Origin: a virus
Direction: 5' to 3' (one strand)
Length of the DNA stretch: 35,178 bases
Virus record (IMG/VR): IMGVR_UViG_3300021326_000002
In this document: positions 14,886 to 35,178 of the stretch, one piece after another
How positions within the stretch are numbered: position 1 is the first letter of the stretch
How the letters are laid out: each line of letters starts with the position of its first letter
Notes under the pieces: generated by a model
Told to the model about the DNA's origin: nothing
The model's input: only the letters and a program-made list of their open reading frames with translations
Database searches by the model: none
Position numbers and translations under genes: made by a program

Positions 14886-16259
14886 TCATTTGAAACACTC
14901 ATGCGTACCCGACAGCAGTTTCGTTTCATCACTGCTCATCTTGTAGCGGACACGGGTCAGTATAGCGTACCAATTTTCAAGCCGTGTGTTGCGCTGGTAT
15001 CTGCCCTCGTAGTCGTGTAGTGATGTTCTATACATACCCTCGTTGATCGTACTAAGCATAGCAAGCATGACGCTTTCGGGGTGTTTCTTAACACGGTCAC
15101 GATAATCTGCGCCCTTGAGAAAAGCCTCCCAGCTATCGTATTTTTCGCTGTCAATGTCGAGGATTTCGGCGACTTCCTCGTAATCAATATCATCAAGTCC
15201 AGCCTCACCGAGAAATGCTTCCGTGATAGTCGGTATAAATTCACGATTTGCAAAGTCTTTTACAAAAGCCTTGCGCAAGTCTGCTGCCTGCTTTTCGAGT
15301 TCGCTTACCTTGCGGTCACGTTCACGCCGTCGGTCTTCCTGCCGCCGTTTTTCAGCTTCTGCGGCTTTGTCGGCTTCGGTCTGCTTGCTTGCATCGGTGT
15401 ATATGTACACCCACGCATACTCCGGCGCATCGCTGCTTATAGTGTAATACTTTGCGTCACCTGTCTGTATAAGGTCTTCAAGCTCTTCTCTTTTCTTGTC
15501 GTCGGGTTCTTTCGACGCAGTTAAATAGCCTATCTGCCGATAACCGAAACGCTTGTCGTATGGTATGCGCTTCAATCCCATTTCCTCAAGCATTACTACA
15601 TTCTTTTTCAGATTTTCGCCCGCGTTTTCCTGCGAAATGATCTGATTAACTTTCCATTTAAAATTTTGCGTTCCGATAGTTTTTAAGGCTTCATTTTTCT
15701 TTTCGGGGTCTTTTATCTTTTCAAGCTCTATGTAATCAGCAAACGTTGCTTGTCTTTCCTCTGCCTTGCGCAGTTCTTCTTGATCTAATTCAAGCAGTTT
15801 AAGGCGGTGTCTGATCGTAGTTTTGCTAAGTCCCGTTTTCTTCGCTATGCCCTCTTGCGTTTCGCCGAGGTCTAACATCATTTGAAATCCCTGCGCCTGC
15901 TCATATACGGTAAGGTCTGCACGCTGCATATTTTCAAGCAGCATTGTTGCCGCTTGCTCGCGTTCGTCCATTTCAACCACCATACACGGCACCATTTCAA
16001 GCCCTGCCGCTTTCGCCGCCGCAAGTCTGCGGTGTCCTATGATAACGGTGTAGCCGTCTGGGTCGTCCTCGTCCGGGTGCGCTGCTTCAACACCTTTACC
16101 GCCCCACACTACCGTTAAATTCTGAAATATGCCGTTTGCCTTTATGCTCTCGGCAAGTTCCGTGATGTCGCCAACGTCCCGGCGAGGGTTGTTGGGGTGC
16201 GGATAGATCATATTAACGGGTAGCTCGGTATCTCTGTACCTAACTTTCAATGAAATCAC
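14886..16259 (-). CDS. ParB N-terminal-domain (ParB/Srx-like) protein (457 aa)
   Basis: YPHPNNPRR, IIGHRRLAAAKAAG and an HTH-like GIAKKTGLSKTTIRHRL. The true start may be the TTG at 16250. Confidence 0.8.
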   Translation of the reverse strand: MISLKVRYRDTELPVNMIYPHPNNPRRDVGDITELAESIKANGIFQNLTVVWGGKGVEAAHPDEDDPDGYTVIIGHRRLAAAKAAGLEMVPCMVVEMDEREQAATMLLENMQRADLTVYEQAQGFQMMLDLGETQEGIAKKTGLSKTTIRHRLKLLELDQEELRKAEERQATFADYIELEKIKDPEKKNEALKTIGTQNFKWKVNQIISQENAGENLKKNVVMLEEMGLKRIPYDKRFGYRQIGYLTASKEPDDKKREELEDLIQTGDAKYYTISSDAPEYAWVYIYTDASKQTEADKAAEAEKRRQEDRRRERDRKVSELEKQAADLRKAFVKDFANREFIPTITEAFLGEAGLDDIDYEEVAEILDIDSEKYDSWEAFLKGADYRDRVKKHPESVMLAMLSTINEGMYRTSLHDYEGRYQRNTRLENWYAILTRVRYKMSSDETKLLSGTHECFK

Positions 16260-18257: not shown

Positions 18258-19061
18258 ATGGCATTTAAACGCAAAACAGCTATAATTATCGTGCTTTCGC
18301 TTTCTGTTCTTGCTTCTTGTGGCAATAGCTCGGGCGGTTCTTCCACAAATCCGGCTATCAGCACGCAGGAAACATCAACCGTTACAACAACTACACAAGC
18401 GGAAATTACAACCACAACAACCGAAACAACAACTACAACAAAAGAAACAACAACTACCACAACAAAAGCGACGACTAAAGCAACTGAAACGACAACAAGC
18501 GGACATAGGTATTATATACTTAATCACAATACGGGCAAGATACATAACCCGTTATGTCACACTTTGGAGGATAGCAGCGACGAATACGAGGAATTGATTG
18601 ATATTGGTATGGATTGGGTGAACGCTAACGGTTATTCGCTGTGCAAGGTTTGTAACCCTATCGTACCGCCTACGTCAGACAATAACCCGACAACCACAAC
18701 AAAAGAATATGACCGCAACTATTATCCGTTTAGTGAACAAAAAGAGATCAAATTAAAATATGACGCTGTTCTGTATTTTGCACCCGATAAAACGTCCGAC
18801 GACTTGTATAAATTTGGTGCAGGTACAATTTTAATTGCTGTCGGTGAAACAAGCGACTTTTTCGCGGTCACTATGAATAATGAAATAGTATTCTGTGAAA
18901 AGGTTGCTGCCGAATACTATTCCGAGCCTGTCTATACTGACGCTCCGCAAACAGACCCACCGCAAACAGACCCACCGCAAACCGAGCCGCCTCAAACAGA
19001 CGTACCGCAAACAGACCCGCCACAAACAGACCCGCCACAAACGCTTGCGGTAACGGAATAA
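18258..19061 (+). CDS. Lysogeny-module lipoprotein (moron) with a Thr-rich linker, Cys/His motif, SH3b-like segment and C-terminal TDPPQ repeats (267 aa)
   Basis: Signal peptide plus lipobox LSVLAS-C. TTTTQAEITTTTTETTTTTKETTTTTT. H-x3-C...C-x2-C (HNPLCH...LCKVCNP). Seven pentapeptide repeats at the C-terminus. Confidence 0.75.
   Translation: MAFKRKTAIIIVLSLSVLASCGNSSGGSSTNPAISTQETSTVTTTTQAEITTTTTETTTTTKETTTTTTKATTKATETTTSGHRYYILNHNTGKIHNPLCHTLEDSSDEYEELIDIGMDWVNANGYSLCKVCNPIVPPTSDNNPTTTTKEYDRNYYPFSEQKEIKLKYDAVLYFAPDKTSDDLYKFGAGTILIAVGETSDFFAVTMNNEIVFCEKVAAEYYSEPVYTDAPQTDPPQTDPPQTEPPQTDVPQTDPPQTDPPQTLAVTE
18936..19040 (+). repeat. Seven tandem 15-bp repeats encoding T-D/E-x-P-Q
   Basis: The unit acagacccaccgcaa and variants were read directly, in frame with the lipoprotein ORF. 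Confidence 0.85.
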
Positions 19062-19073
19062 AGGGGCGTTATT

Positions 19074-20684
19074 ATGGCAACAAAGAATGACGATAAATTG
19101 ATAACGGGCTACATATACGCCCGCTATTCCCCCGGACCGCAACAAACCGAGGCAAGTATCGAGGGGCAAGTCCGCGAATGCAAGGAATATGCGGACCGTA
19201 ACGGCATACGCATTATAAACGTATATTCAGATAGCAAGCAGACGGGGCGCAATGACAAGCGAGCGGGCTTTCAACAAATGCTCCGTGATTGCAAGCGAGG
19301 CGGCGTGTCCGTCGTGCTGGTATGGAAATTAGACCGTTTCGGGCGCAATCGTGCAGAAATAGCACAAAACCGCGCTTTGCTGAAATTGTCGGGCGTCAAG
19401 GTCGTTTCCGCTATGGAGCATATACCCGAAACGCCCGAGGGCATTATCCTTGAAAGTGTCCTCGAGGGTATGGCTGAATACTATTCCGCTAACCTTGCGG
19501 AAAATGTAAAACGTGGGTTAAAAGAAAACGCCCTGCAATGCAAGGCGAACGGGGCGGGGCAAAGTTTAGGCTATGTTGTCGGTGATGATCGGCGGTACAA
19601 GATAGAGCCGAGCGAGGCGGCTATCGTCAAGCGGATATTTACCGAATACGACGACGGCGCAAAGATCGCGGACATTTGGCGCGGGCTTGTGGCTGCCGGG
19701 GTAAAGACAAAACGCGGCAAAGAGTTTACACAATACGGGATAGCGCGTATTTTAAGCAACCGTGCGTATATAGGCGAATACCGATACGGCGACATTGTAA
19801 CGCCCGGCGGTATGCCCCGCATTATTGACGACGATCTATTTGAACGCGTGCAGGCGCGACGGAATGCGGGCAAATCCGCGCCGACGCGGCGGAGTACAAG
19901 CTGTGACGTTGATTTTCTGCTTACGGGTAAGTGCGTTTGCGGCTGCTGTAAAGGCACAATGCGCGGCACGTCGGGAACGGGCAAAAGCGGGCATAAGTTC
20001 TATTATTACGCTTGCCACAACAAAATATACAAGCACGCTAAATGTACCAAAAAGAACGTTAATAAAGAATGGCTCGAGGGCGAGGTTACGCGCTTGACCG
20101 TCGAATATATCTTGACCGACGAAATAATAGACTTTATCGCCGAAAAGGTCATAGAGGTGCAGGTTGCCGAACAAGCGGACAAATCAATGTTACAATACTA
20201 TGAAAACGAATTAAAGGAAACGCAACGCGCCTTGAATAACATTGTAAAGGCTATCGAGGACGGGCTTGTAACGTCCAGCACAAAAGCCCGCTTGTTTGAG
20301 TTAGAGGAACGCAAAGCCGCGTTAGAAATCAACATTGAAAAAGAGAAAATACAATACCCGCCCCTCGACAAAATGCAAGTTGTGTATTTCTTGCAGCGCT
20401 TCAAGGGCGGCTCGGTTGATGATAAGGAATACCAACGGCAAATAATAGACCTGTTCGTCAATCGCGTGATCGTGTACGACGACAAGATCACTATTACATA
20501 CAACGTCAGCGGCGAACACAACGAATTGACCGCCGATATTATAGAAAAGGCTGCAAATTCGGCGGAGTCGGGGTGTTCGACTAAATACACGTCAAGTCCA
20601 TCATTTGCAGAAAAGTCGAACACTGTTACAATATTCTTTGTCGGTGGACTTTTCGGAATAACCGTAAAAACCCGCAAGGCGTAA
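19074..20684 (+). CDS. int: Large serine recombinase (integrase) (536 aa)
   Basis: Resolvase-type N-terminus YIYARYSPGPQQTEASIEGQ...VLVWKLDRFGRN, a recombinase domain, a Cys-rich zinc ribbon (CVCGCCKG...) and a coiled coil. Confidence 0.9.
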   Translation: MATKNDDKLITGYIYARYSPGPQQTEASIEGQVRECKEYADRNGIRIINVYSDSKQTGRNDKRAGFQQMLRDCKRGGVSVVLVWKLDRFGRNRAEIAQNRALLKLSGVKVVSAMEHIPETPEGIILESVLEGMAEYYSANLAENVKRGLKENALQCKANGAGQSLGYVVGDDRRYKIEPSEAAIVKRIFTEYDDGAKIADIWRGLVAAGVKTKRGKEFTQYGIARILSNRAYIGEYRYGDIVTPGGMPRIIDDDLFERVQARRNAGKSAPTRRSTSCDVDFLLTGKCVCGCCKGTMRGTSGTGKSGHKFYYYACHNKIYKHAKCTKKNVNKEWLEGEVTRLTVEYILTDEIIDFIAEKVIEVQVAEQADKSMLQYYENELKETQRALNNIVKAIEDGLVTSSTKARLFELEERKAALEINIEKEKIQYPPLDKMQVVYFLQRFKGGSVDDKEYQRQIIDLFVNRVIVYDDKITITYNVSGEHNELTADIIEKAANSAESGCSTKYTSSPSFAEKSNTVTIFFVGGLFGITVKTRKA

Positions 20685-20700
20685 GCCCTGCGGGTTTTGT
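20666..20700. terminator. Bidirectional intrinsic terminator between the convergent int and endolysin genes
   Basis: aaaaa-cccgcaaggc-gtaa-gccctgcggg-ttttgttt. The integrase stop codon lies in the loop. Confidence 0.65.
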
Positions 20701-20737
20701 TTGTTGTGCATAAATATTCAGCTCGCGTTTTTGTGCA

Positions 20738-21616
20738 TTATTTCATAAGCATTTCGCCCAGCGCCTTTACAAGCCTGCTGCCTGCAATACCGTTCTGCTT
20801 ATAGCCGAGCCGCTTCAAAAGCTCATTAGTAGCCTTTTCTGTGCCGTCGCCGAATACGTTGTCATTGTTGACCTTTACGGAAACGATCTTTTTTGCGTAT
20901 GCTATCAAAAGCAGCTGCTTGTAAGAAAGTATGCCGAGGCTCTTGTCGCCTTTTTTTGCCCCGCTTGTGTCAAGCACCTTTTCGCCGCTTTCCTGCTTCT
21001 TATATCCGTTGTACCCGCCGCTCTTGATCGTGTTCGGGTAATCGACGTAGCAATAATCGCAATCAACATTGCCACTTATTCCGTTTACCTTGCCGCTGGA
21101 TGTGTACTGCCACATTGCATACGTTCCCGAATAATTCAGCTTGCTTGCATATTCCGCAACCCACAAAGTATAACGCCTTGCAACATCGTTTGAAATGTAG
21201 CTTTGCAGCGGCGAACGGGATATATAAAGCCCAGCGAAATATCCGCACTTTTCCAACTCCCCACAAAAAGCCTTTACTAAGCTGTCGCAAAACGACTTAC
21301 CCCTAACAAACTGTGCTTTTTCCTCGAGGTCAAAAAAGATAGGGTATTCAAACTTTTTGCCGCTAATGATCGTCATGCAGGCTTTAGCCTCGGCGATCGC
21401 GTCGGCGGTGCTGGTAGCGTATGAATACCAATACACGCCGACGTCAAGCCCTGCCGCCTTTGCGTTCTTATAGTTCTGTTCAAAGTACGGGTCTTTCTGC
21501 GACGTGTACTTGCCAAAGCCCGCACGAATGATAGCAAACATGACACCCGCCGCCTTGACCTTTGCAAAATCAATATTACCTTGATACTGTGAAATGTCTA
21601 TGCCCTTTATAGTCAT
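20738..21616 (-). CDS. Endolysin: GH25 muramidase with a C-terminal cell-wall-binding region (292 aa)
   Basis: IKGIDISQYQGNIDFAKVKAAGVMFAIIRAG. ATG at 21616 with GGAGGG RBS, chosen over the longer track ORF. Confidence 0.85.
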   Translation of the reverse strand: MTIKGIDISQYQGNIDFAKVKAAGVMFAIIRAGFGKYTSQKDPYFEQNYKNAKAAGLDVGVYWYSYATSTADAIAEAKACMTIISGKKFEYPIFFDLEEKAQFVRGKSFCDSLVKAFCGELEKCGYFAGLYISRSPLQSYISNDVARRYTLWVAEYASKLNYSGTYAMWQYTSSGKVNGISGNVDCDYCYVDYPNTIKSGGYNGYKKQESGEKVLDTSGAKKGDKSLGILSYKQLLLIAYAKKIVSVKVNNDNVFGDGTEKATNELLKRLGYKQNGIAGSRLVKALGEMLMK

Positions 21617-21617
21617 A

Positions 21618-22079
21618 TTATCCCTCCTTGTCCTTTTCGTCCGTTTCTGCGTTGTTTTCAACTGCAACTTTCAGTTTATGCACTATTGCCGTAAGGAATG
21701 ACGGCAACGGCACGCCGATTATAGCGAGGTTTTCAAGTATTGAAATCAATTCGTTTATAATCAGCCATATTGCGACGATCACGCCGAATAGATAGTTAAT
21801 TTCAACGTCAATGCCTATCTTTTGCAGACCCGACGCTAAAAGCCAGTCCACAACCGCCGCCACGCATACGACAAGCAGATAGCACACTTTTTTGACAATG
21901 CCTTTAATGCCTGTCCTGCTGGATAGATCGGCATTTATCCACGCTTTAATCATTCCCGTTATGTAGTCGATCACCATAACCAATAGCAGAAATACAAGCG
22001 GTATGGCAATTTCGCGGAAATAAGCAGTCAGCCCGCCGACTATCACGGCAAAAACGGCTTTGAATACATTTTCCCTCAA
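21618..22079 (-). CDS. Holin, phage_holin_4_1 (TcdE-like) type (153 aa, TTG start)
   Basis: Multiple TM helices and the motif VIDYITGMIKAW. AGGAGG lies 8 nt upstream of the TTG at 22079; the track ORF extends to 22115. Confidence 0.75.
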   Translation of the reverse strand: MRENVFKAVFAVIVGGLTAYFREIAIPLVFLLLVMVIDYITGMIKAWINADLSSRTGIKGIVKKVCYLLVVCVAAVVDWLLASGLQKIGIDVEINYLFGVIVAIWLIINELISILENLAIIGVPLPSFLTAIVHKLKVAVENNAETDEKDKEG

Positions 22080-22083
22080 ATCG

Positions 22084-22239
22084 TTACGCCTCCTCGCTGC
22101 CGTCGTCGAAATCAAGCCCGGTAATGGTTTTGTATTCGTCGGCGGTTATCCAGCCTTTGCATACCGCGTCATATACCTGTCTTATGCTCCAATAGCCTTT
22201 ATCATAGTAGCCCTTGACCTTTTCAAATTTCTTACTCAT
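22084..22239 (-). CDS. xkdX: XkdX-family small protein (51 aa); below the ORF-track size cutoff
   Basis: My translation is MSKKFEKVKGYYDKGYWSIRQVYDAVCKGWITADEYKTITGLDFDDGSEEA, the typical XkdX pattern and position upstream of the holin. Confidence 0.7.
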   Translation of the reverse strand: MSKKFEKVKGYYDKGYWSIRQVYDAVCKGWITADEYKTITGLDFDDGSEEA

Positions 22240-22534
22240 TGTCGCCGCCCTCCTTGCTGCTGTCGTCTGCCTCTTCGGCTATAATGTCGCCGTTATCCGA
22301 TACCCCCTTGAAAACGTACTCGGTGTCGTTCGCGTAGAAATGATCGCCGGGGGCTATTTCGTCGGTGATCGTGGTGTCGGTGTCGCTGTCGAGTTCAATA
22401 TCGCACATCATGGCAATATAATCGACGTTCGCCGCGTTCTTGTTGGTGGCTTCGGCAAGCGCTGCATTTTTAGCGCGCTCTCTTATCGCCTGTTCGCTTG
22501 CGGGAATAAATCCAAACATTACAATACCTCCCAT
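22232..22534 (-). CDS. Acidic 100-aa protein, a VR-less paralogue of the N-terminal domain of the second DGR target
   Basis: EIAPGDHFYANDTEYVFKGVSDNGDIIAEEAD compared with DLEPGDHFYYNDYEYVLLDVTDNGDYFAITAD in the 11102-11845 product. Confidence 0.6.
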   Translation of the reverse strand: MGGIVMFGFIPASEQAIRERAKNAALAEATNKNAANVDYIAMMCDIELDSDTDTTITDEIAPGDHFYANDTEYVFKGVSDNGDIIAEEADDSSKEGGDNE

Positions 22535-22705
22535 AAATTATAATAATAGTCTGTCATGCTTGCGATCAGCTTGTAGCAATCGCCCTTTGACGCGTGAGCA
22601 ACCCAGCTTTTGAAACATTCGTCAACGTCCTTGCGGCTCATTAACCCCGCCTTGCAGCGGGAAACAAGTTTCTTTAGCTTTCGACGTTCACGCGTTACCT
22701 TTTTT
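22519..22705 (-). CDS. RT C-terminal (thumb-like) segment, readable only in the +1 frame after the A6 run at 22700-22705
   Basis: My translation is KKVTRERRKLKKLVSRCKAGLMSRKDVDECFKSWVAHASKGDCYKLIASMTDYYYNLWEVL, with its stop at 22519-22521. It would restore an RT of about 350 aa. Confidence 0.6.
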
Positions 22706-23572
22706 AGGCAATACGCGCATTACCACTTTACCCGAGGGCGTCAGCCTAAAACTAAAGCCCATAAAATGTAACGGTTGTGTTATCGGGAAAATGTGCGTTT
22801 TCTTCTTACTCAACTGCAAGCCGAGCGCGGCTAAGTGGTTTTTGATTTGTTCACGGCAAGCCCGCAAATATTCTTTGTCGGGGTGTATCAAAATAAAATC
22901 GTCCATATATCGCACATAGCCTTTTATGTGCAAGGCTTCTTTTATATAATGGTCGAGGTCGTCGAGGACGGCTAATTGTATAAGCTGCGTTACTTGTGAG
23001 CCGAGCCCCATACCCTTTGACGGGTCGCTGCCCTGCGTAAAACTGTTTACAATGCGTTCAACCTCGCCTAACGCCCAACTATCTTTGATGCGCTTTTGAA
23101 CGGCTGCACAAGCGACTATGTGCGGCGTGCTGCCGAAATAGTCGGATATATCGCATTTGAGCACATAGCCGTTACAACCGTATTTGCGGTAATGTCTTTG
23201 TAAATGGCATTTCAAGCGGTTTCGTGCAAAGTCTGTGCCTTTGCCGACTTGACAAGCGGCATTGTCGTAAATGAACGACTTTGAAATGTTTTCAGTTAGG
23301 TAATTATCGCATAAAGACCGTTGAAATACGCGATCTTTTATTCTTGTACTCACAATTACCCTCCTTTTCGGCTCGGTGATCGTGAATACCGTGTATTTGC
23401 CTATCTGATATTTGCCGCTTAACAATTCGTCTTTGAGCAAACAACAATTTACCAAGCCGTTTTTAACAAAGCCTGCCGCACTGTCTTTCCACATTATGCC
23501 GCGTTTACATTTGAGCATAGCCGCGTAAAGACTTTCAAACGAGCATACCGTTAATTTTACATTATCATTCAT
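22688..23572 (-). CDS. DGR reverse transcriptase, main ORF (294 aa as sequenced; apparently truncated by a frameshift)
   Basis: Motifs KRRVIVSTRIKDRVFQ, DISDYFGS, GLGSQVTQL (DGR-type (I/L)GxxxSQ-like) and YMDDFILIH. Confidence 0.85.
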   Translation of the reverse strand: MNDNVKLTVCSFESLYAAMLKCKRGIMWKDSAAGFVKNGLVNCCLLKDELLSGKYQIGKYTVFTITEPKRRVIVSTRIKDRVFQRSLCDNYLTENISKSFIYDNAACQVGKGTDFARNRLKCHLQRHYRKYGCNGYVLKCDISDYFGSTPHIVACAAVQKRIKDSWALGEVERIVNSFTQGSDPSKGMGLGSQVTQLIQLAVLDDLDHYIKEALHIKGYVRYMDDFILIHPDKEYLRACREQIKNHLAALGLQLSKKKTHIFPITQPLHFMGFSFRLTPSGKVVMRVLPKKGNA

Positions 23573-23728
23573 AAAAATAATAATTACGCTGTTTATAGTG
23601 ATACTTACTTGTTTTTCAAGTAAACCACATCAACGTTATACTTTCACCTCTGAAATAGGTTAGGACAATAATTCCTTGTGTGAGTGCTCTGATTTCCGCC
23701 TTTTGGCTTACTTTATGCGGGCGTTTCT
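23573..23728 (-). ncRNA. TR-to-RT spacer, presumed part of the DGR template RNA
   Basis: A 156-nt non-coding stretch between the TR 3' end and the RT start. By analogy with characterised DGRs this region takes part in cDNA priming. Confidence 0.4.
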
Positions 23729-23845
23729 CACAATCCGGGGCGACGCCGTTACTGTTCGTCGCGTTGTTGTTGTTGAGCGCCCCCGACGGGTTGACGTTGC
23801 GGACGTTGTTCGCGTTGCCGACGTTCGGGGAACGCAACCACCAAT
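23729..23845 (-). repeat. DGR template repeat (TR), 117 nt, 28 adenines on the sense strand
   Basis: Rich in AAC codons in the VR reading frame (NVGNANNVRNVNPSGALNNNNATNSNG). Identical to VR1 and VR2 at every non-adenine position. Confidence 0.9.
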
Positions 23846-23860
23846 GATAGCGTTTTACAA

Positions 23861-24280
23861 TTATTGCCCTGCTGCTTTGTCGTGCTTCTCGATCTCGGCT
23901 TTACGCCAATTCCTGATTAGGTTTTGCACGTCGTATATAAGCCGCGTCCAATGTTCAACGCGTGCGGTTTCAAGGCTATATGTGCGGTATGCAATATCAA
24001 CCATACTTAACAAAGCGTATGTTTCGGCGAGTGCCTGCGTCTGATAGCGCTTTCTTAATATGTAGTCTGTATCGTCCCGCACAAATACGGAATTAGCCAT
24101 ATTAACGCCGTTGTTGATATTCATTGCACTTTCGACAATCTTACTTGTCAAGCACCAACGGTAACGTTTAGGGAACGTCTTTTCGTTCGCGCAAATCTTC
24201 AACGTATATTCCGCAAGGTCGCGGGCTTTTGTGATAACTACAAGTTTACCCTCGCTTTGCTTTGATTTTACAACCGACAT
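23861..24280 (-). CDS. avd: Accessory variability determinant (Avd), four-helix-bundle protein (139 aa)
   Basis: Size, basic character and the FPKRYRWCLTSKIVESAMNINNGVNMAN motif. Located between the target gene and the TR. Confidence 0.8.
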   Translation of the reverse strand: MSVVKSKQSEGKLVVITKARDLAEYTLKICANEKTFPKRYRWCLTSKIVESAMNINNGVNMANSVFVRDDTDYILRKRYQTQALAETYALLSMVDIAYRTYSLETARVEHWTRLIYDVQNLIRNWRKAEIEKHDKAAGQ

Positions 24281-24292
24281 ATTAGCCTCCGT

Positions 24293-24312
24293 TCCGCCCC
24301 TATCGGGGCGGA
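24293..24312 (-). other. GC hairpin (8-bp stem, 4-nt loop) 18 nt downstream of VR1
   Basis: tccgcccc-tatc-ggggcgga; the sense-strand loop is GATA. Lies between the target stop codon and the avd RBS, with no U-tract after it. Confidence 0.7.
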
Positions 24313-24319
24313 TTTTAGT

Positions 24320-25732
24320 TTAGATGATTACACAAGCCGGGGCGACGCCGAAACTGTACGTCGCGACGTTGCTGTTGAGCGCCCCCGACGGGATGACGCT
24401 GCGGACGACGTACGCGTTGCCGACGAACGGGGAACGCAACCACCAATATTTAGCCGCCCCGGCGCGATACTTGATACGGTTAGTGTCTGCCCCCGTACCC
24501 GCTGCCGCAAGGTCTGAATAATTGGAATAGTACGCGTATGCCTTGCCCTCGCCGCCTGCGATCTCGTTACCCGTGTACGCCTCTGTACGCGAAATCAAGA
24601 ACACTTTTTCGTCGGTTTCCACCGAGCCGCCGCCGTCCGAAACGTTGTTCAGCGCGGTTACTTTCTTAACCTTACCCAGCACGGCGACGAATTCGGGGTC
24701 AACGCCAAACAAAAAGCCTGCTGTTGTTGCAGCCCAAGAGGGCGGACGATCAAACTTTGTCTGCGGCGTCCATACCGAGCCCGCCGCCTTGCTGCTGTTG
24801 ATATACTGCCGCATAGCACTTTCAACGTAGTTGTTTGAACCGTAGCGGACGCGCTGAATACTGTTGATGTTGTTAGCTGCGTCCCCTGCGGTTGTAAGCT
24901 GCCCGAGGTTAGTTCCTGTTGTGCCGGACGATACGGGCACACTTTCAATAGCTGTTGTTGCAGAGGCAGACGCCCAGCTTGATACTTTTGCGGCGCTTGC
25001 CTGCGCATTGTAGCCCCAAGAGAACGTAAGCACGCCCTTTGCTGGTACGTCCTGCGTCAGCGTAAACTGATAGCCCGTGTCTTTGTAAGTGTTATATGTT
25101 GCGTCATACGTCGGGTCTATCGTAAAATAGTAATTTCCTGCAACAAGCCCGTTTTCTGCGTAGTAGAACGCCTCGGCGGCGTCATACTGTAACTCAGCTA
25201 TGCAGTCGTGCAGCTGCAATGTCAAGCTGTGTTCAAACTGTGTGTCGCTCGGTGCGTCATGATCTATGCCGATAACGTCAAATGTCAGCTTTGCGGCGGT
25301 TTCGTGGACTATAACCGCGTCGCCGTGTGCAGGCGTTCCCGTAACGGTTATGCCGTATGCTGCAAGCTGTACGGGCGCGTCGTTGTAGTGCCATTCTGCG
25401 CCGTTGTAAACGAATTCATAGTCGCCGCCGTGTACAACGCCGACGGCTGCTATAAACGCGTCAGCGTTGACCGTAGCCGCCGTAATGCCCGCGCTGGTGT
25501 CGGGGTCTGTGTTGCCGACGGTTGCATTTATCGCGGTTTCCTTTTCGGCTATGATCTGATCGCCGATATGGAAAAAGTGCGACGCAAGCCCCGCCCTTAC
25601 GATCGCCTGCACGTCCTTAAAGCTGGTGATGTTGTAGCCGCCCGTATTGGCTGCGATCGCTGCGCACGACTTTGCGATCTGCTGCATTGTGCTGTCTTTC
25701 ACAAGGTCAATATCAATGATAGGGTCAGACAT
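24320..25732 (-). CDS. Primary DGR target: receptor-binding / tail-fibre tip protein with a C-type-lectin-like variable C-terminus (470 aa)
   Basis: Last large gene of the tail-fibre module. The C-terminus YWWLRSPFVGNAYVVRSVIPSGALNSNVATYSFGVAPACVII is encoded by VR1. Confidence 0.85.
   Translation of the reverse strand: MSDPIIDIDLVKDSTMQQIAKSCAAIAANTGGYNITSFKDVQAIVRAGLASHFFHIGDQIIAEKETAINATVGNTDPDTSAGITAATVNADAFIAAVGVVHGGDYEFVYNGAEWHYNDAPVQLAAYGITVTGTPAHGDAVIVHETAAKLTFDVIGIDHDAPSDTQFEHSLTLQLHDCIAELQYDAAEAFYYAENGLVAGNYYFTIDPTYDATYNTYKDTGYQFTLTQDVPAKGVLTFSWGYNAQASAAKVSSWASASATTAIESVPVSSGTTGTNLGQLTTAGDAANNINSIQRVRYGSNNYVESAMRQYINSSKAAGSVWTPQTKFDRPPSWAATTAGFLFGVDPEFVAVLGKVKKVTALNNVSDGGGSVETDEKVFLISRTEAYTGNEIAGGEGKAYAYYSNYSDLAAAGTGADTNRIKYRAGAAKYWWLRSPFVGNAYVVRSVIPSGALNSNVATYSFGVAPACVII
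24331..24447 (-). repeat. DGR variable repeat 1 (VR1), 117 nt
   Basis: 14 mismatches to the TR, all at TR adenines (14 of 28). The other 89 positions are identical. Confidence 0.9.
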
Positions 25733-25735
25733 TTT

Positions 25736-25939
25736 TTACTCCTCCGTTTCTGTTGTTTGATTAGGGTCATACCTCAATACTAAGCTGTTGTCAGCTTGAA
25801 TTGACAAAAGAAAATTCTTGTCGTGGAATATCGCCGCTATTGCCGAATTGGCGGCGGTCGCTGCCTCGTTCGCTGCGGTTGTTGCTATTTCCACGTTTGC
25901 CATAGTCTTTTTACATATAGCCAAAGTTTCAACGTCCAT
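25736..25939 (-). CDS. Hypothetical tail-fibre-module protein (67 aa)
   Basis: ORF tightly packed between fibre-module genes. Confidence 0.45.
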   Translation of the reverse strand: MDVETLAICKKTMANVEIATTAANEAATAANSAIAAIFHDKNFLLSIQADNSLVLRYDPNQTTETEE

Positions 25940-25951
25940 ACACGCCCTCCT

Positions 25952-26146
25952 TTACTGTTCTACCCATTCGCCCGCGTCGGCGTCGAACATATAAAGCCCG
26001 CCCGTGTCGATCTCGTAGAACGTTGAGCCGTTGCCGACGTTAAAGCCCTCGCAAGTTTCCGTCGGCTTCGTGTCGGTGGACTTGCCGCGCAATTCCAGTA
26101 TTGCCGAACCGTCGCTCGCTGTCGTCGCCTTAAATACCGTTACCAT
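25952..26146 (-). CDS. Hypothetical tail-fibre-module protein (64 aa)
   Basis: ATG with GGAGGTGG RBS. Confidence 0.5.
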   Translation of the reverse strand: MVTVFKATTASDGSAILELRGKSTDTKPTETCEGFNVGNGSTFYEIDTGGLYMFDADAGEWVEQ

Positions 26147-26160
26147 GTAACCACCTCCGA

Positions 26161-26829
26161 TTAAAGATCATATACATAAGCGTGCGGCGCGCCGTCCTTT
26201 ATCCTCAACTTGACAATGTACGTTGTGTTGGTGTCAAGGTTTTTGAGCGCAAGCCCGTCTATTGCGTCGCCTACCGCCTCGGCGGCGGCATTTGCCCGGG
26301 CGGCTGCTGTGTTTGCTGTTCCCGCCGCCGTGTTCGCCGTGCCTGCTGCCGTATTGGCATTTGCGGCGGCTGTGTTTGCTGTTCCCGCTGCCGTATTGGC
26401 TATGTCTACCGCGTCGTCAGCTTCGCGGAGCGCGGCTTCAAGTATGGTGAATTCGTCGCGGCTTTCTATCTCGGTATCAGATATTGCAGACTTTTCAATG
26501 CGTAGATAGAAAATAAAGGTCGTCAATATCTGTGTACCCTTATATAGCCCGATCTCGGCTATTGCCACGCCCGGGACGGCTAACGCCTGCGAGGTCAGTT
26601 CCGCCGTAACTGTATTGCCGCTTACTGTCGCCGCGTTGTATATGGCGGTGTTGTCGGGTTTTAGGACGCGTATTCGTGCCGTTGTGCCGCTGTCAAGCGT
26701 GTACGCTGCGCCGCTTTCAAGCAGCGTTACCGCAACATAGCGCGTTCCCTTGTCGCCCTGCTTTGCGTAGACCGTCGGCGGCGAGTTGTTCAAGGCAATA
26801 TCAAGTTTTATTTCGGTCGTTGTCTGCAT
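26161..26829 (-). CDS. BppU-N-like baseplate/fibre protein with an Ala-rich heptad repeat (222 aa)
   Basis: N-terminal IKLDIALNNSPPTVYAKQGDKGTRYVAVTLL... pattern, and ANTAAGT-type repeats at aa 144-184. Confidence 0.6.
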   Translation of the reverse strand: MQTTTEIKLDIALNNSPPTVYAKQGDKGTRYVAVTLLESGAAYTLDSGTTARIRVLKPDNTAIYNAATVSGNTVTAELTSQALAVPGVAIAEIGLYKGTQILTTFIFYLRIEKSAISDTEIESRDEFTILEAALREADDAVDIANTAAGTANTAAANANTAAGTANTAAGTANTAAARANAAAEAVGDAIDGLALKNLDTNTTYIVKLRIKDGAPHAYVYDL

Positions 26830-26830
26830 A

Positions 26831-27202
26831 TTATCCCTCCTCGATCATAAAATCAAGGGCGGCAATAAAGCTGATAGGCACGCCCGCCTCGGGTATGTCG
26901 TCAAGGCTTATCGTGACAATATCAAGGCTAACGCGTTCAAGCGCTATTTCAGTAATAGCCTTGTTTACCTTGTCAAAAAGCTGCGGCTCTTGCTCCGCGT
27001 CAACGGTTGACCTGCCGCCGCTTTCGCGGTCTATGATCTCGTTTCGCGCCGTTTCAAACGCCTGCAAAGCCTGCTTAATGGCTAACTTGTTCTTGATGAT
27101 CTTATAGGCTATCTTTGGCGGCATTACAATGTCCTTTGCCGTCGCCGCCTCCAGCCTTGCCGAAATCCGCACAAGTTCGCCGTTTGTGAATTCCTTTTCC
27201 AT
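26831..27202 (-). CDS. Hypothetical protein downstream of Tal (123 aa)
   Basis: ATG at 27202 just after the Tal stop. The longer TTG-started track ORF would overlap Tal. Confidence 0.5.
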   Translation of the reverse strand: MEKEFTNGELVRISARLEAATAKDIVMPPKIAYKIIKNKLAIKQALQAFETARNEIIDRESGGRSTVDAEQEPQLFDKVNKAITEIALERVSLDIVTISLDDIPEAGVPISFIAALDFMIEEG

Positions 27203-27203
27203 A

Positions 27204-30200
27204 TCAAACCGCCCTTTCTGCTTCAAGTGCTGTTATACGCCCCTCGAGGTGCTTGACATAAGCAAGCAGGGGCGAAATAAATTCTTCGTACCTTAACGCG
27301 TATTCGCTGCCGTCGCCACCCACGTCAACAAATGCCGCAAATTCCGACGTGTCAATGCCTGCTGCCGTCATAGCTTGCAGGACGTTTTGAGCGATAAAGC
27401 CCGTATGTGTGCGCCCCGACAAAGCTATATCGGCGTTGTATCGGAATGATACGGGGTCAATTGCCTTTATCATTTGCAAATACTTGTCCGCAAGCGGCGT
27501 TATATCCTGCTTGTGTCGGCTGTCGGACGATACCGCAACGGGGCTGCCGTTGGCGTAGATGTTCGAGCCGACGAGCTTCAAGGGGAGTTGATTCATACCT
27601 ACATATAAAGCATCGTTGTTTACCCACCTAAACGCAATTGTACCTGTGCAAGTTATGCCGTAGCCGTCGTCAACATCGACGTATCCGCCCCGTACATATA
27701 CGCTTGCGTTTTCATGCCACGTTGGCGCATAGTGATATGTTGTTCTATGGTGCTTTATGACGCCGCCGCCGTCTAAGTGTATATCGCCGCCAGCGTTGAT
27801 ATACAACGGGCAAGAGTTGACGCCAATTCCAAGCCATAAGCCCGAATTTGACACGCCCCCGTCGCTGTCGGCATATCTTAACCCGATATTGCCGCCCCAT
27901 GCAACACCTACATTATTGATAAAATTTACACTCGATCTGAATTGACCTGCAAACTTAACGCTATCAACAAAATAGTGTCTGCAATCAAACTGATCGTACC
28001 CGTCGCCGTCAAGGCTCATGTAATAATAGCCGTTAATTGTATTGTTCATGGCGCGCCCGAACATTAGTCCGTGATAATTGGTTGACGCTAAAAAGCCAGT
28101 TCGTGTTAAACTGCCTTGATGTACAGGGACAATAACTGATACTCTGCTGTTGTCGTAATAGGTTTCTATCTGTCCGCTTGTCATCTTCGTTCTATACCCT
28201 GTCGTGCCGCCCGAGGTTACACTACCCGTCATCGTAGCATTTGACATTGTAGCATTTCCGTTTGCGTCAAGCCTGAAATTGCCCGTTGTAATGATAAGCC
28301 GCCCGGCTGTTAGCGATATTGTGTCGGAGCTTTGGTTGATCTCTGATACAACGTCGCCGCTTGATACTTTAAGGCTTATATTATTAGCGTTCTGCGTGAT
28401 CTGCGTTTGCAGCTTGTTTGTAATAAGCGATAATGTTTTCTGATAGACCCACGACGAGCCGTTAGACAAGTACAAATAACCGTTATTCTGATTGAGGTAA
28501 TATTTGCCGTTATTGCTTGCGGCTGCATATCCTGCCGCGGCTGGTGTGCCGTATCCGTATAAATTCACGGTGTCGCTTGATGTGTCGTACTTGCTTTGTG
28601 CCTTACTTACGGTCGATAATATGCCGTTTTCGGAAACGCTTATGCGGCTGTCGGTTTCGGTTTTGGTGTAATAGTCGTTGCTTAACTTTGTATTAAAGCT
28701 AAGTGTCAAGCCGTTTGCGCTTGTGGTGATCGCTGTGTCGGTTTCTGTTTTGGTGTAGTAGCCGCCGAGCTTATCGTTAGTATAATCGTTAGCGTCAGTT
28801 ATAGCCCCGTCTATCAAATTCCCTGTTTCGGTCTTTGTGTAGACTTGCAGCATAATACTATTTGCGCTTGCGGTTATTTGGCTGTTCGTTTCGGTTTTAG
28901 TATAATACCCTGTCAATTTGTTGTCGGTGTAGTCGTTAGCGTCGTCTATTGCGTCGCTTACCGCGTTGCTTATCTGTGTGTTGGTCTGTGTTTTGGTGTA
29001 GACTTGCAGCATTATATTATTAGCGCTTACCGAAATTTTACTATCCGTTTCAGACTTTGTGTAATAGCCGCCTAACTGTGCGTCGGTGTAGTCGTTAGCG
29101 TCACTTACTGCGCCGTCAATCAAATTACCCGTTTCGGTCTTTGTATAGACTTGCAGCATTATATTGTCCGCCGTCTGCTGTATCAGCGTTTGCGAACGTG
29201 TTTCCGACGCGCTTATAGCGTCGGTGTAGCTGTTTGTAATGCTGCTGCGCAATTCTTCATCAGCGACGGAGAATTCTTGTTCAACGGTTTCTTGTGCGCC
29301 GCTTATGGCGTCGGTGATCTGCTGCTTAAAGCCTGCTGAAATGGCGTTAGCCTGCACGCTGTCAGCGCGTAGCAATGCGCCGTTAAGTGTACCCGCTGTT
29401 ATGAAATCGGCTACAATAGCGCCGTTCATAGTCATTGCAAGCCCGTATGTGCCATTATAACCCGTTGACGAATAGCCAAGCCCCGCCGAGTTCCAGCGCC
29501 ACACATGGACGGCGGTTTCTATGTCGGGCGTGTCCATTATCAAAATTTCCTGTGGGTGCTCTGCGGGGTGCAATACCACATAGCCGCCCGAATTGCCCGT
29601 TATAAGCGCGGTCGCTTCGTCAATAGCCTGTCGCCATTCTGCCGTAGCATTTGCAAATCCCTCGCGCACAACGGTTGCAAGGTCGTTCAACGCCTTTTCC
29701 TGTTCGAGCACGGTATCGGCAAAGCTGCTGCGTGCCTCGCCGAGTTCGACGCTTTTATATTTTTCGTTCAAGGTGTCGTAAACTGTCTTAATGACCTTTG
29801 CTTTTGTGGATATACCCAGCTTGACAAAACGTACTGTTACAACATCGCAAAGCTGTACGCGTTCGAGGGGCGCTATGTCCTTGTATTCTTCGGTTTGCCA
29901 TAAGGATATAAACGACGCTTGTATATTTACTTTGGGCGTTCCGAGTTCTTCGTGCGCCGCAATATACGCCGTTGCCTTGTTCCTTAAAGCCTGCTCGGTA
30001 ATTTCTTCGTTATCCCCGAATGTGTCCGACAAATTGATTATTGCCGCCTTTTGGTGTCCGACATTGCCCGCGATCGTAAGCGGTAATACCTTTTCTTCGA
30101 GCGTTACAACAATGTCGCTGCTTTCGGTGTTACCGTTCGCGTCGGTGGTTTCCTCGGTGTATATAGCATACGGGAATATATGTGTATAGGTTTCTGTTAT

Positions 30201-31528: not shown

Positions 31529-34383
31529 TATCCGAATACAACTCCCTTTCGTCTTATTTTGCTTTCGATCTTATACATGATAAGGTCTATAAAGTCGTCA
31601 ATGTCCTTTTCGGTCTTGTTTTCTATCTTGTCGATATTAACCGAAACGTCAATGTTAATGCTCGGCTTGCCCGCGTCGGTCGTCGGCACTACAATTTCGC
31701 GTACCGCCTGCCGTATGTAGTCAAGTAATACGCTTATAGGTGCGACGGCTTCCTCGCCTGCCTCGCCGCCTACCTTTGCCGTGCCTGCTTCGGGGTCAAT
31801 GTCAAATACGGTCGGCTTTTTCATTACCGCGCCTTTTGCGTACCATTCAATACCCAGCGACGGGATAGAGCCCTCGAGCAAGTCACCCAAGCTCCAGCCG
31901 GACGGGCTAATAGCAAAGTGCGGTAATTTGATTTGCGGCAACGATACATTGAAATTGAAAAATGACTTTATTTTGTCAATGGCATTTTTTACAACGTTTC
32001 GCACATTGTCGAAAATGTTTGTAAACGTCTGCTTGATATTGTTCAAGCGGTTTGTTACGGTGTTTTTGACGTTGTCAAGCCCGCTTGTAATGGTTGTTTT
32101 TATGGCGTTTATTATATTGCTTACTTTGTTTTTGATGTTGTCAAAAATACTTGTAAACTTCTGCTTGATATTGTCAAGGACATTTGAAACAACATTCTTG
32201 ATAGCGTTTAAGCCGTTAGTAAATATCTGCTTGTAAAAATTAAAGATATTCCCGAAAAACTGCTTAATGTCGTTAAAGATTTTTGTTACAATGTCCTTTG
32301 CCTTATTAAACGCCTCGTCCCAATTGCCTAAAAAGACGTCAAGTATTATTTCGACGATCTTATTAAACAATTCAACGGCTTTTTCATAATAGCCCTTTAA
32401 GGTGTCGGCGCAAAAGGCTAAAAACGTCATAATACCGTCTATCGCGGGTGTAAGTATGCTTACAACCGTTTCGACGATCTCCATTATAAACGCTATCAGT
32501 TCGGGCAAAATAGCGCTTATCAAGTCCATAAGCGGCGTTATCAGAATTAACAGAATGTCTAATAACGGCTGGATAACCGGCAATAGCTGCATTAACAAGT
32601 CTGTAAGTATCGGCAATACGCTTTCAATTATCTGCGTAAGCAGCGGCATACATTCTTGTATTAGCTGAATGATAACGGGTAATATTGCGTTTACTATTTC
32701 GGTTATCGTCGGCATTAACGCGTCGATAAGCTGCACGATCACGGGCAATATAGCCTCGATAATCTGCATAGCAAGCGGCAATATTGTATTTATCAAGTCG
32801 ATAAGTACGGGCAATACCGCGTCAATTATCTTTGTAAGCAGGGGCAAAACGGACTTGATAATGCTAACGAGCGACGGCAACAACGTTTTTATAAGGCGTG
32901 TTACGATCGGTAATATAGCGTTTATCAAATCGACAATGACGGGCAATACCGCGTCTATTATGTCGGTCAGTATCGGCAATATTTCCTCGATAACATCTAC
33001 CAATAGCGGCAAGATAGTTTCAACCACTTTCAAAAGCGGCGGTATTATCTGCTGTATCAGCTTAACGATAACAGGCAGCACCGCAGAAATAAGGCTTTGC
33101 GATGGCGGTAATAGCGTTTGTATCAAATCAAATAGTATCGGGAATACTGTATTAGTCAGTTCGATAAGCGGCGGCAATATGCCGTCAAATACGCTTGTCA
33201 GTATTGGAATAAATCCCTCGATCAGCTTTTGAACATTCGGTAAGTTGTCGGTAATAACTTCAATAGCCTGCTCAACTATCGGTATCAATGCTGTACCGAT
33301 CTGCTGCTTGATAAGTGCAAAATTGTTTTTTAGCTTGCCGAGCTTAGCATTGAGGGTGTCGCCCATTGTTTCAAACGCCTTTTGCGTTGCACCTGCCGAG
33401 GTCTGCATTTCGCCGAGAATGTTTGCGAAATCCTCTCCGCCGTCCTTGACCAGCGTCATTGCTGCTGCGCCTGCAAGCTGCTTGTTGAACATATCTTTAA
33501 GCGTCAAGCCTGCGTTGCCTGCATAATCATTAAGCATATTAAGCACATCGGCGGTGCTTTTGCCCTCGGCTTGCAGTTCCGCAAAGCTCTTGCCGGATAT
33601 TTCGCGTAAAGCCTTATCGGCTTTTGAGCCTGTTTTTGACAGTTCGCCGAGCATAGAGTTGATCTGCGTACCTGCCTGCGCTGTTGCGACGCCGTTTTTT
33701 GTCAGTACGGCGTACTGCGTTGACAGGTCGTCCATAGCAACGTTAGCACCCGACGCAATAGGTATCGTTTGACCTAATGATGCCGCTAGTTCGTCAACGG
33801 TAGTTTTACCGAGGTTCTGCGTAGTGATAAGCATATCCGAAATGTCGGTTGCTTTGTCGGCTTCTAAGCCATACGCATTAAGGGCTGTCGTAAGTACATC
33901 AACGGCGGTTGTTGTATCAGTAAAACCGCCCTTTGCCAGCTTAACGGCATTCGTTGTAAATTCTACTGCGTCAGCTTGATCTACCGAGGCAGATATAGCC
34001 GAGTATGTCGCATCGGAAAAATCAGAAAAAGCAACACCGGTTTCGCCGGAGGCTTTTATGATCTGGTCGTAAATGCCCTGTATATCTTCTTCCGTACCCG
34101 ATAATAGCGTTTTAACTTTCGCAAACGCCGTTTCTTGTTCGGCTGCGTCAGTAGCCATTTTATAAGCAGCGCCGCCGAGGGCGGTTGCAGCCGCAACGGT
34201 CATTGTTCCCATTGTTACGGCTGCATTGCCTATAGTGCTAAATGCTTTACCAATCTTTGAGCCTGCGCTTTCGCCCTTTTTGGTCGTTTCGTCTATGCTC
34301 TTGTCGGCTTCTTTGTTGTCAATGAATATAGTTCCAAATAGCGAAAAGATATTAGCCACGGTTGCGCCCCCTATCCGCCTCAA
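31528..34383 (-). CDS. Tape measure protein (951 aa; the true start may be the GTG at 34359)
   Basis: Largest helical protein downstream of the G/T chaperones, with 21 consecutive 11-residue repeats. Confidence 0.9.
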   Translation of the reverse strand: MRRIGGATVANIFSLFGTIFIDNKEADKSIDETTKKGESAGSKIGKAFSTIGNAAVTMGTMTVAAATALGGAAYKMATDAAEQETAFAKVKTLLSGTEEDIQGIYDQIIKASGETGVAFSDFSDATYSAISASVDQADAVEFTTNAVKLAKGGFTDTTTAVDVLTTALNAYGLEADKATDISDMLITTQNLGKTTVDELAASLGQTIPIASGANVAMDDLSTQYAVLTKNGVATAQAGTQINSMLGELSKTGSKADKALREISGKSFAELQAEGKSTADVLNMLNDYAGNAGLTLKDMFNKQLAGAAAMTLVKDGGEDFANILGEMQTSAGATQKAFETMGDTLNAKLGKLKNNFALIKQQIGTALIPIVEQAIEVITDNLPNVQKLIEGFIPILTSVFDGILPPLIELTNTVFPILFDLIQTLLPPSQSLISAVLPVIVKLIQQIIPPLLKVVETILPLLVDVIEEILPILTDIIDAVLPVIVDLINAILPIVTRLIKTLLPSLVSIIKSVLPLLTKIIDAVLPVLIDLINTILPLAMQIIEAILPVIVQLIDALMPTITEIVNAILPVIIQLIQECMPLLTQIIESVLPILTDLLMQLLPVIQPLLDILLILITPLMDLISAILPELIAFIMEIVETVVSILTPAIDGIMTFLAFCADTLKGYYEKAVELFNKIVEIILDVFLGNWDEAFNKAKDIVTKIFNDIKQFFGNIFNFYKQIFTNGLNAIKNVVSNVLDNIKQKFTSIFDNIKNKVSNIINAIKTTITSGLDNVKNTVTNRLNNIKQTFTNIFDNVRNVVKNAIDKIKSFFNFNVSLPQIKLPHFAISPSGWSLGDLLEGSIPSLGIEWYAKGAVMKKPTVFDIDPEAGTAKVGGEAGEEAVAPISVLLDYIRQAVREIVVPTTDAGKPSINIDVSVNIDKIENKTEKDIDDFIDLIMYKIESKIRRKGVVFG

Positions 34384-35064: not shown

Positions 35065-35178
35065 AATAAATAAACTCCTTATCTATTGATTTTTATGATT
35101 TAGGTAGTGCCGCCGCCGCTTGCAGCTTTGCGCATTTCAAAAGACGATACCTCGGTAACTTCCCACAAGTCGCCGTCG
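35052..35178. repeat. Second copy of the 127-bp terminal overlap (35100-35178 duplicates the 3' end of the major tail gene)
   Basis: Identical to bases 1-127. Confidence 0.9.

Follow-up and report, generated by a model that had tools for sequence, protein, structure and literature searches.

The question raised by this locus is whether a retroelement that shows every recognizable part of diversity-generating retroelements (DGRs) is also an intact one. The window, i.e. the whole stretch of 35,178 nucleotides analysed here (IMG/VR record IMGVR_UViG_3300021326_000002), carries a target gene, a hairpin, an avd-like gene, a template repeat (TR), a spacer and a reverse transcriptase (RT) gene, and a sequence-only reading had taken these to form a complete phage-borne DGR. 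The element is best explained as a canonical DGR with two recipients, of which the present copy has an RT gene broken by one extra adenine in a run of six (A6); this A6 copy is most likely inactive or strongly attenuated, and its variable repeats (VRs) record earlier mutagenic homing, a reading that we regard as probable. All features of the element given below lie on the minus strand.

The TR (23729–23845) is 117 nt long, with 28 adenines and 12 in-frame AAC codons, and is located in non-coding DNA between avd and the RT gene, with a gap of 156 nt to the latter. VR1 (24331–24447), likewise 117 nt, codes for residues 429–468, approximately, of target 1, the 470-aa product of the ORF at 24320–25732. 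In an exact ungapped alignment on the minus strand there are 14 mismatches, which fall on 14 of the 28 adenines and on none of the 89 other positions, and the homology ends sharply at both sides. Nine of the substitutions are A>T, four A>G and one A>C, and the chance that all 14 should hit an A is 8.7e-11 (hypergeometric). Read in the frame of the target, the 12 AAC codons hold 24 of the 28 adenines, and the altered codons in VR1 are those of residues 436–466. VR1 is found at the 3' end of its gene, on a probable C-type-lectin-like domain, as expected of a DGR. Exact realignment reproduces every number that had been read from the sequence for the two repeats (coordinates, 117 nt, 14 differences all at TR adenines), and the same is true for the dominance of AAC codons in the VR frame and for the placing of the variable codons in the last ~40 residues of the 470-aa protein; the ceiling of 4^28, or about 7e16 variants, is arithmetically right (7.2e16 at the DNA level, about 3.3e16 at the protein level).

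One of the 14 differences has to be set apart. The A>C at TR position 23734 and VR1 position 24336 (GAT in the TR, GCT in the VR) is found in VR1 and VR2 (described below) alike, and 21 of 21 TR/VR pairs, taken from 18 related loci, have it as well. As it is fixed in the family, only 13 of the VR1 differences record mutagenesis; the 14 differences stand as regards their location at adenines, and as a record of mutagenesis their number falls by one. We read the GAT/GCT difference as being of the initiation of mutagenic homing (IMH)/IMH* type, positioned past the point to which TR information would be transferred, but it may also be that only alanine is tolerated at that residue. The IMH-like 3' end of VR1 (24331–24349) consists of the GC-rich GGCGTCGCCCCGG followed by CTTGTG, where the TR has ATTGTG, and GGCGTCGCCCCGG is present at the ends of both VR1 and VR2. 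In Bordetella phage BPP-1 the homing boundary is (GC)14 (PMC3240598), and it is by analogy with this that the VR1 end is read as the limit of information transfer.

A repeat search of the whole window revealed VR2 (11192–11287) as a third copy, 96 nt that match TR 23730–23825 in the same codon register, with 10 mismatches of which 10 out of 10 are at TR adenines (P = 7.5e-7). It is part of target gene 2 (11102–11845; 247 aa; Pfam DUF6273 1.9e-9, phrog_9958 1e-50), situated ~11 kb downstream of the RT gene in the direction of transcription, in the early/replication block with genes for an HD hydrolase, a methyltransferase, a Rep protein and a sigma/Myb-like regulator as neighbours. The limits 22519–25732, given earlier for the whole element, thus leave out the second target of the same DGR. 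An IMG/VR locus search with target 2 as query gave no confirmed locus, and its homologues were taken from the protein database; among these (68–92% identity) variation is found exactly at the AAC-templated residues, and the tail after the VR, FNHEILIARRQARDGRI, is nearly invariant. Within protein clusters of at least 90% identity, nearly all the variation in either target is at AAC-templated residues.

A hairpin comes after each VR. Hairpin 1 (24293–24312) has an 8-bp GC-rich stem with a GATA loop, TCCGCCCC-GATA-GGGGCGGA, 18 nt downstream of VR1 in the intergenic region between target gene 1 and avd, and hairpin 2 (11148–11169) has a 9-bp GC stem with a GACA loop, TCGCGCGCC-GACA-GGCGCGCGA, 22 nt downstream of VR2 and within the coding sequence of target 2, where it codes for ...ARRQAR.... 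The rule published for phage DGR target sites is a GC stem of 7–10 bp with a GRNA loop, 4–34 bp after the VR (PMC3240598), and both hairpins agree with it in stem, loop and distance. GC hairpins with different stem sequences come after 23 of 25 related VRs, and the loop is GACA or GATA in 20 of the 25, with three more being GTCA, GGTA or GTTA. The GC-rich VR end and the GRNA hairpin are the predicted marks of a recipient site.

The Avd-like gene (23861–24280; 139 aa) is located between target gene 1 and the TR, a place that is conserved in the related loci. Its product matches Pfam bAvd (2.3e-4, 22 bits, cut-off 40) and NCBIfam DivGenRetAVD (8.4e-5, 22.8 bits, cut-off 80) over the full length but below threshold, and 11 of 17 orthologues match bAvd, the best with 4.4e-6; a search against PDB sequences, with the protein alone and as a 17-sequence profile, gave no match. 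In the stretch separating the TR from the RT gene, directly 5' of the RT start, there is a structured spacer RNA (23564–23725) that scores 41.8 bits (gathering score 40; local E 2e-8) over the full model (positions 1–222) of the Rfam motif RT-2 (RF03077). RT-2 occurs at the equivalent place in relatives (L001, L002, L003 and L087; 41.1–46.4 bits), and of the 18 pairs predicted, 15 have compensatory changes when 19 related spacers are aligned. The original description of the RT motifs put RT-10 in the BPP-1 spacer and suggested, as a speculation, that further motifs of the set work in other DGRs (PMC5737381). By analogy with the Sp RNA of BPP-1 (bioRxiv 10.1101/2023.10.23.563531, PMC6182149), the spacer is presumably the part of the DGR RNA that primes cDNA synthesis and docks RT and Avd. 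The order of target, hairpin, Avd-like protein, TR, 156-nt spacer and YMDD RT, as first proposed, is borne out by the ORFs and by the Rfam and profile matches.

The RT gene is where the description as complete fails. In its 5' frame the gene (22688–23572) has 294 codons, 291 native and three aberrant, followed by TGA, and it codes for a protein with YMDD and a match to RVT_1 (5e-14). At the A6 homopolymer (22700–22705) there is an insertion of one nucleotide (+1), the frame is lost after Lys291 and the truncated product ends with ...VLPKKGNA*, while the 3' segment (22519–22699), in the +1 frame, codes for the conserved 59 C-terminal residues (VTRERRKL...SWVAHASKGDCYKL...). The span 22519–23572, which had been given as a single gene, is thus made up of two frames with a stop after 294 codons, and an intact translatable RT is not found in the window. 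All the cassette parts could be found, but this copy is not complete, because the 1-nt insertion at 22700–22705 splits the RT frame and the C-terminal 59 residues are lost.

With the frameshift removed the RT has 350 aa and matches RVT_1, and its best match in PDB is 8ub7_A (E 1e-25, 94 bits) over residues 9–343, which spans the frameshift. We take 8ub7_A to be Brt, the RT of the Bordetella phage, because it has 328 aa and YMDD at 213–216, as stated for Brt (PMC3240598); the entry belongs to a set of nine that is consistent with the cryo-electron microscopy (cryo-EM) study of bRT-Avd-RNA. Other RT classes (CRISPR-associated, group II intron and others) reach 42 bits or less, none of the NCBIfam retron, group II and defence-associated RT (DRT) models matches at cut-off, and the motif-4 region LGSQVTQ can be aligned to IGSLTSQ of Brt, so the proposal of a YMDD RT of the DGR type is upheld. 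The RT 3' segment aligns to residues ~270–323 of Brt and to the unbroken RTs of relatives, and by the alignment to Brt the part that is lost would be the thumb. According to the same cryo-EM study, the Brt thumb touches the template:primer duplex and has the 'Thumb Ring' of the spacer (Sp) around it. We infer that the 294-aa product is inactive.

The related DGR family comprises 393 IMG/VR loci and 4,231 RT homologues at E <= 1e-50, and the frameshift survey covered the best 80 of the IMG/VR loci. All 80 read through with A5 or A4 and without a frameshift, and in this they differ from the window. A5 is also found in the closest IMG/VR relative and in L001, L087, L175, L177 and L178, of which L087, L175 and L177 are sisters of 98–99% identity with an RT of 350 aa. 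Seven contigs of ENA and JGI origin (L081–L085, L093 and L094) carry A6, and their cassette is identical to that of the window. Scans with the exact pattern of the A6 junction gave no matches in viral_contigs and metagenome_contigs, both evidently without the carrier samples, and the allele was traced via contigs that code for the truncated product. The exact truncated RT product is found on 24 contigs read, from 39 index blocks; 18 contigs are on record for the truncated product P0379 and 11 for P0375. Contig L178 (ENA ERZ27247020; 35,473 nt) is identical to window 20700–27300 except that it has A5 for A6, and its VR1 is the same. The A6 allele is thus real and not an assembly accident, and a single strain, with one and the same VR1, harbours both A5 and A6.

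The sister phages show how the VRs have changed. Six sister contigs that are 98.1–99.3% identical outside the VR carry six different VR1s, with a density of differences of 9–13% in VR1 versus 0.4–1.7% elsewhere, and 79 of the 84 VR1 differences among them are at A-templated sites, with the TR unchanged in five of the six. The TR is identical in 8 of the 10 sister contigs that cover it, and the VRs covered all differ, save in L178, which has the VR1 of the window. Since near-identical sisters carry different VR1s, with 79 of 84 differences at A-templated sites, the DGR of the clade has been active. The TR of sister L180 is without one AAC codon (a 3-nt deletion, window 23773–23775), indicating that TR length varies in the clade.

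The A6 insertion is not the only lesion found in the clade. The integrated copy on the 150-kb host contig L094 has a single-base difference from the window in 6.5 kb, a C>T at window 24037 (in L094:2793–3038) that changes avd codon 82 from CAG to stop (Q82*), on the A6 background. In a sister phage of 98.4% identity with an A5 RT, codon 180 of the RT is a stop (Q180*, window 23035), and this was seen in two sequencing runs (L181, L182). There are thus three independent knock-outs of the DGR machinery among genomes that are >98% identical, namely RT A5>A6, avd Q82* and RT Q180*, and in the window's own strain the RT A5/A6 and avd Q82* are the only two polymorphisms in ~6.5 kb. The RT genes of the intact lineages L177 and L180 have five synonymous and no non-synonymous substitutions each, that of L175 has seven synonymous and four non-synonymous, and that of L087 none and four.

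The working of the element can be pictured from the BPP-1 paradigm. A transcript running from the end of avd through the TR and the structured spacer would be bound by RT plus Avd, the spacer would prime cDNA synthesis on the TR with adenines being copied unfaithfully, and the cDNA would then replace a homologous VR, the recipient sites being marked by the GC-rich IMH-like VR end and the downstream GC hairpin with its GRNA loop. The two recipients would be VR1, in the C-terminus of a distal tail protein, and VR2, in a small DUF6273 protein of the early block. In this copy the change from A5 to A6 should truncate the RT, and VR1 and VR2 would remain as traces of past homing.

Target 1 has a β-rich N-terminal part and a C-terminal lectin-like DUF6273 domain (Pfam 2.5e-18, residues 291–469; phrog_19280 2e-49), and a PDB sequence search with it gave nothing. 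AlphaFold2 (AF2) models were obtained with a mean confidence (pLDDT) of 87.6 for target 1 and 88.2 for target 2. In Foldseek the target 1 model matches PDB 9qa6 and many DUF6273 or tail-collar proteins of uncultured phages, and the target 2 model matches 9qa6 (E 1.8e-8, query TM-score (TMq) 0.57) and the C-terminal domain of Legionella Lcl (8q4e, probability 0.98), followed by a long tail of individually weak matches to C-type lectin domains. The N-terminal domain of 9qa6 is annotated as DUF6273 (PMC12402451), and DUF6273 targets of DGRs are given a C-lec fold in the literature (PMC10743442); this and the weak target 2 matches suggest a C-type-lectin fold for the targets. The sole strong solved match of both targets, 9qa6, is the N-terminal DUF6273 domain of an immunoglobulin A (IgA) peptidase of Thomasclavelia ramosa, an enzyme that has been studied for its Fab-dependent IgA recognition and may hint at the ligands of DUF6273 domains. 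Tropism switching, the function first suggested, is a reasonable proposal from position and fold; with the RT broken it would fit the past of the lineage or the A5 siblings, and not this copy.

Several points weigh against the reading of a two-recipient DGR that has been silenced in this copy, or against parts of it. A single VR1 is common to every A6 contig examined and to L178, the A5 twin, and the identity of VR1 in the A6 contigs is not attributable to the frameshift, because L178 has it as well; it may reflect one clonal, mostly lysogenic population. The argument that the VRs are frozen since the RT is dead was dropped as proof for the same reason. The A6 carrier samples may be non-independent, several being in shared accession series. 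The 139-aa ORF is probably Avd, on the basis of profile matches below threshold. The likely role of target 1 as a receptor-binding protein is read from position and fold, as any role of target 2 would be, and in PDB the full model of target 1 matched the DUF6273 domain of 9qa6 in Foldseek, with no match to Mtd, TvpA or formylglycine-generating enzyme (FGE). Finally, a +1 ribosomal slip on AAA-AAG, or transcriptional loss of an A, would restore the ancestral RT, and some full-length RT may thus be made.

The last point leads to the alternative that survives best, namely that the DGR is still functional here by +1 ribosomal slippage of Lys-tRNA from AAA to AAG, by transcriptional slippage or by a reversible A5/A6 phase switch that would hold RT production down, which we consider unlikely. 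By either slip the ancestral ...LPKKVTRE... protein would be restored exactly, and genomes with A5 and with A6 are alike over 6.6 kb save for this run, indicating that the site changes faster than its surroundings. The run is nevertheless short, five to six A, and slippage-prone tracts typically have 7–9 or more nt; in the relatives the run is A4 or A5, read in one frame, with 0 of the 80 best IMG/VR loci needing a shift, there is no evident stimulatory element, and a stop in the 0 frame follows three codons downstream. Elsewhere in the clade the machinery is knocked out by plain nonsense mutations, pointing to decay or selected loss and not to regulation. Programmed frameshifting as a conserved trait was rejected, as none of these relatives needs the shift. 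A wider proposal, with recurrent and possibly selected loss or throttling of the DGR, A5/A6 as a possibly reversible or leaky switch and, separately, target 2, a cytoplasmic-looking DUF6273 protein of the early region, as a diversified intracellular binder (e.g. of host defence proteins) and not a virion adhesin, seems quite unlikely to us; if true, the A5/A6 switch would give rare bursts of hypermutation.

It is very improbable that the extra A is a homopolymer error of sequencing or assembly and that the real RT is intact with 350 aa, which would make the element complete as first described. In favour of it, just one base in a homopolymer is changed, and L178, otherwise 100% identical, has A5, but A6 has come out of at least three pipelines (ENA k141, JGI and that of the window, whose terminal overlap of 127 nt implies another assembly), and the truncated products are recorded on 18 and 11 contigs as given above. 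Homopolymers of six bases are not normally error-prone in short-read consensus sequences. That the repeats are duplicated domain segments, or the result of gene conversion between paralogues, beside an unrelated retron or group II RT and with no mutagenic homing, is effectively refuted, since some similarity is to be expected between two DUF6273 targets but the TR lies in non-coding DNA, 24 of 24 mismatches over two comparisons are on adenines of one copy (P = 9e-11 and 7e-7), the sisters differ almost only at those sites with the TR constant, and the RT is closest to Brt.

The two-recipient DGR can be compared with known systems, the prototype being that of BPP-1 (mtd-avd-TR-brt). The two have in common the order of target, hairpin, avd, TR, spacer RNA and RT, the restriction of differences to adenines, an AAC-rich TR, a VR at the 3' end of the gene for a lectin-like distal tail protein, and a GC-rich VR end with a downstream GC hairpin whose 4-nt loop is GRNA (PMC3240598); the closest solved homologue of the window RT is the BPP-1 RT itself (8ub7_A, taken as Brt). 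They differ in that the targets of the window are DUF6273 proteins and not of the Mtd type, with no sequence or Foldseek match to Mtd, that there are two targets, one ~11 kb away, and that the spacer is RT-2 in the window and RT-10 in BPP-1. The Avd-like protein of the window is weakly similar, the host is a Gram-positive rumen anaerobe, and the RT is frameshifted.

Closer in its targets is a group of DGRs in the Faecalibacterium prophages Lelie and CP11 and the gut phages nd4 and nd12, with two DUF6273 (C-lec) targets, one of them large and the other small (PMC11792537, PMC10743442). Like the window phage they are temperate, with hosts among the Oscillospiraceae or gut Firmicutes, one TR serves two targets, and the VR is at the C-terminal end of DUF6273 in both. 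The small target of these phages has about 230–290 aa in a single globular lectin-like domain with short flanking helices, and the 470-aa and 247-aa targets of the window fit such a pair of large and small. Target 1 of nd4 and nd12 has a VR near the 5' end and Ig-like domains (tentaclins), of which there are none in the window. The window phage also differs in having a rumen Ruminococcus as host and in the place of its small target, whose gene belongs to the early/replication block, at 11 kb from the RT, and itself contains the hairpin.

The related family of uncultured phages has RTs with 34–85% identity to that of the window and the same cassette order, and A-restricted TR/VR pairs were found in 26 of 30 loci examined. 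The family also has in common with the window spacers of the RT-2 type, hairpins with GRNA loops (mostly GACA/GATA) and the fixed GAT/GCT difference. A remote second VR in a homologue of target 2 is present in some of the IMG/VR loci as well (L007, L008, L017 and L018); where the second target lies varies, L007 having it behind the lysis genes and the window having it in the early region.

Bases 1–127 of the window are 100% identical to bases 35052–35178 over 127 nt, as found in the whole-window repeat search, and the assembly is therefore circularly closed, giving a phage genome of 35,051 bp. Genes cross the window ends, with the tail module on one side and the head module on the other. The genome codes for a complete siphovirus, with terminase, portal, protease and major head protein among the head genes, and tape measure, Dit, a 1204-aa Tal ending in Peptidase_S74 and a BppU_N protein among the tail genes. 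Target gene 1 is the last gene of the tail module, after those for Tal (Prophage_tail plus Peptidase_S74) and the BppU_N protein (Pfam), and with the DGR it is followed by genes for an XkdX-like protein, a holin and a GH25 lysin, and by a divergent serine recombinase gene. Integrated copies of the phage adjoin smpB, and the SmpB beside them has 96% identity to that of an uncultured rumen Ruminococcus metagenome-assembled genome (MAG). The phage is thus a 35-kb temperate siphovirus of rumen Ruminococcus. The proposal of a phage-borne DGR that closes the tail module of a Clostridia-type siphovirus has been confirmed by the Brt-like RT, the RT-2 spacer, the DUF6273 targets and the adenine-restricted VRs of the sisters. 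A megablast of the cassette against GenBank phages gave no match, and there are no tRNA or tmRNA genes in the window.

In the integrated copies L081 and L094 identity to the window stops at ~20597, inside the recombinase ORF (19074–20684, plus strand) and 88 nt before the stop of the serine recombinase, and beyond are host smpB, a 172-aa ORF and a large protein with SpaA repeats. As window identity ends in the recombinase ORF with host DNA beyond, the attachment crossover seems to be inside the 3' end of the recombinase gene. The adjoining ORF at 18258–19061 (plus strand; 267 aa), which has no PHROG family match, contains at least six tandem 15-nt units (CAGACCCACCGCAAA-like) near its 3' end (18907–19041) and a second block of 21-nt repeats at 18372–18476. 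Repeats are also present in the BppU_N gene (26282–26407; direct 21-nt units coding for NTAAGTA-type repeats), in the gene for the 1204-aa Tal (28684–29163; direct units of 147–159 nt coding for YTKTET-type repeats) and in the tape measure gene (32575–33176; 33-nt periodicity). Two further ORFs on the minus strand, 8713–9546 and 14886–16259, code for a replication initiator of the Rep type (phrog_3584, REP_ORF2-G2P) and for a ParB-like protein. Directly 3' of the RT gene is a 100-aa ORF (22232–22534, minus strand), which gave no family match in Pfam, NCBIfam and PHROG searches; a stretch of 32 residues in it is 59% identical to the N-terminal part of target 2 (BLASTP E 1e-10), with ...PGDHFY.ND.EYV...DNGD... 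in common, and it may be the remnant of a target-2-like gene.

As a DGR the element is ordinary, pairs of large and small DUF6273 targets having been published already and the family being very large in gut and rumen viromes. What goes beyond routine is the frameshifted RT with its intact twin, the recurrent knock-outs, the second target in the early region with a hairpin inside the gene, and RT-2 as a DGR spacer. The orphan Rfam motif RT-2 is thereby placed at the spacer of a DGR, supporting the suggestion, made when the motif was described, that further RT motifs belong to DGRs (PMC5737381). There is also a caution, as TR/VR statistics by themselves would label the element complete despite its broken RT. 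The A5/A6 twins, the nonsense alleles of avd and the RT gene and the near-identical sisters with different VRs constitute a natural allelic series. Combined with read-level or long-read data, this series could show the rate of VR turnover and the need in vivo for the C-terminal part of the RT, and it could also show whether lysogens select against an active DGR.

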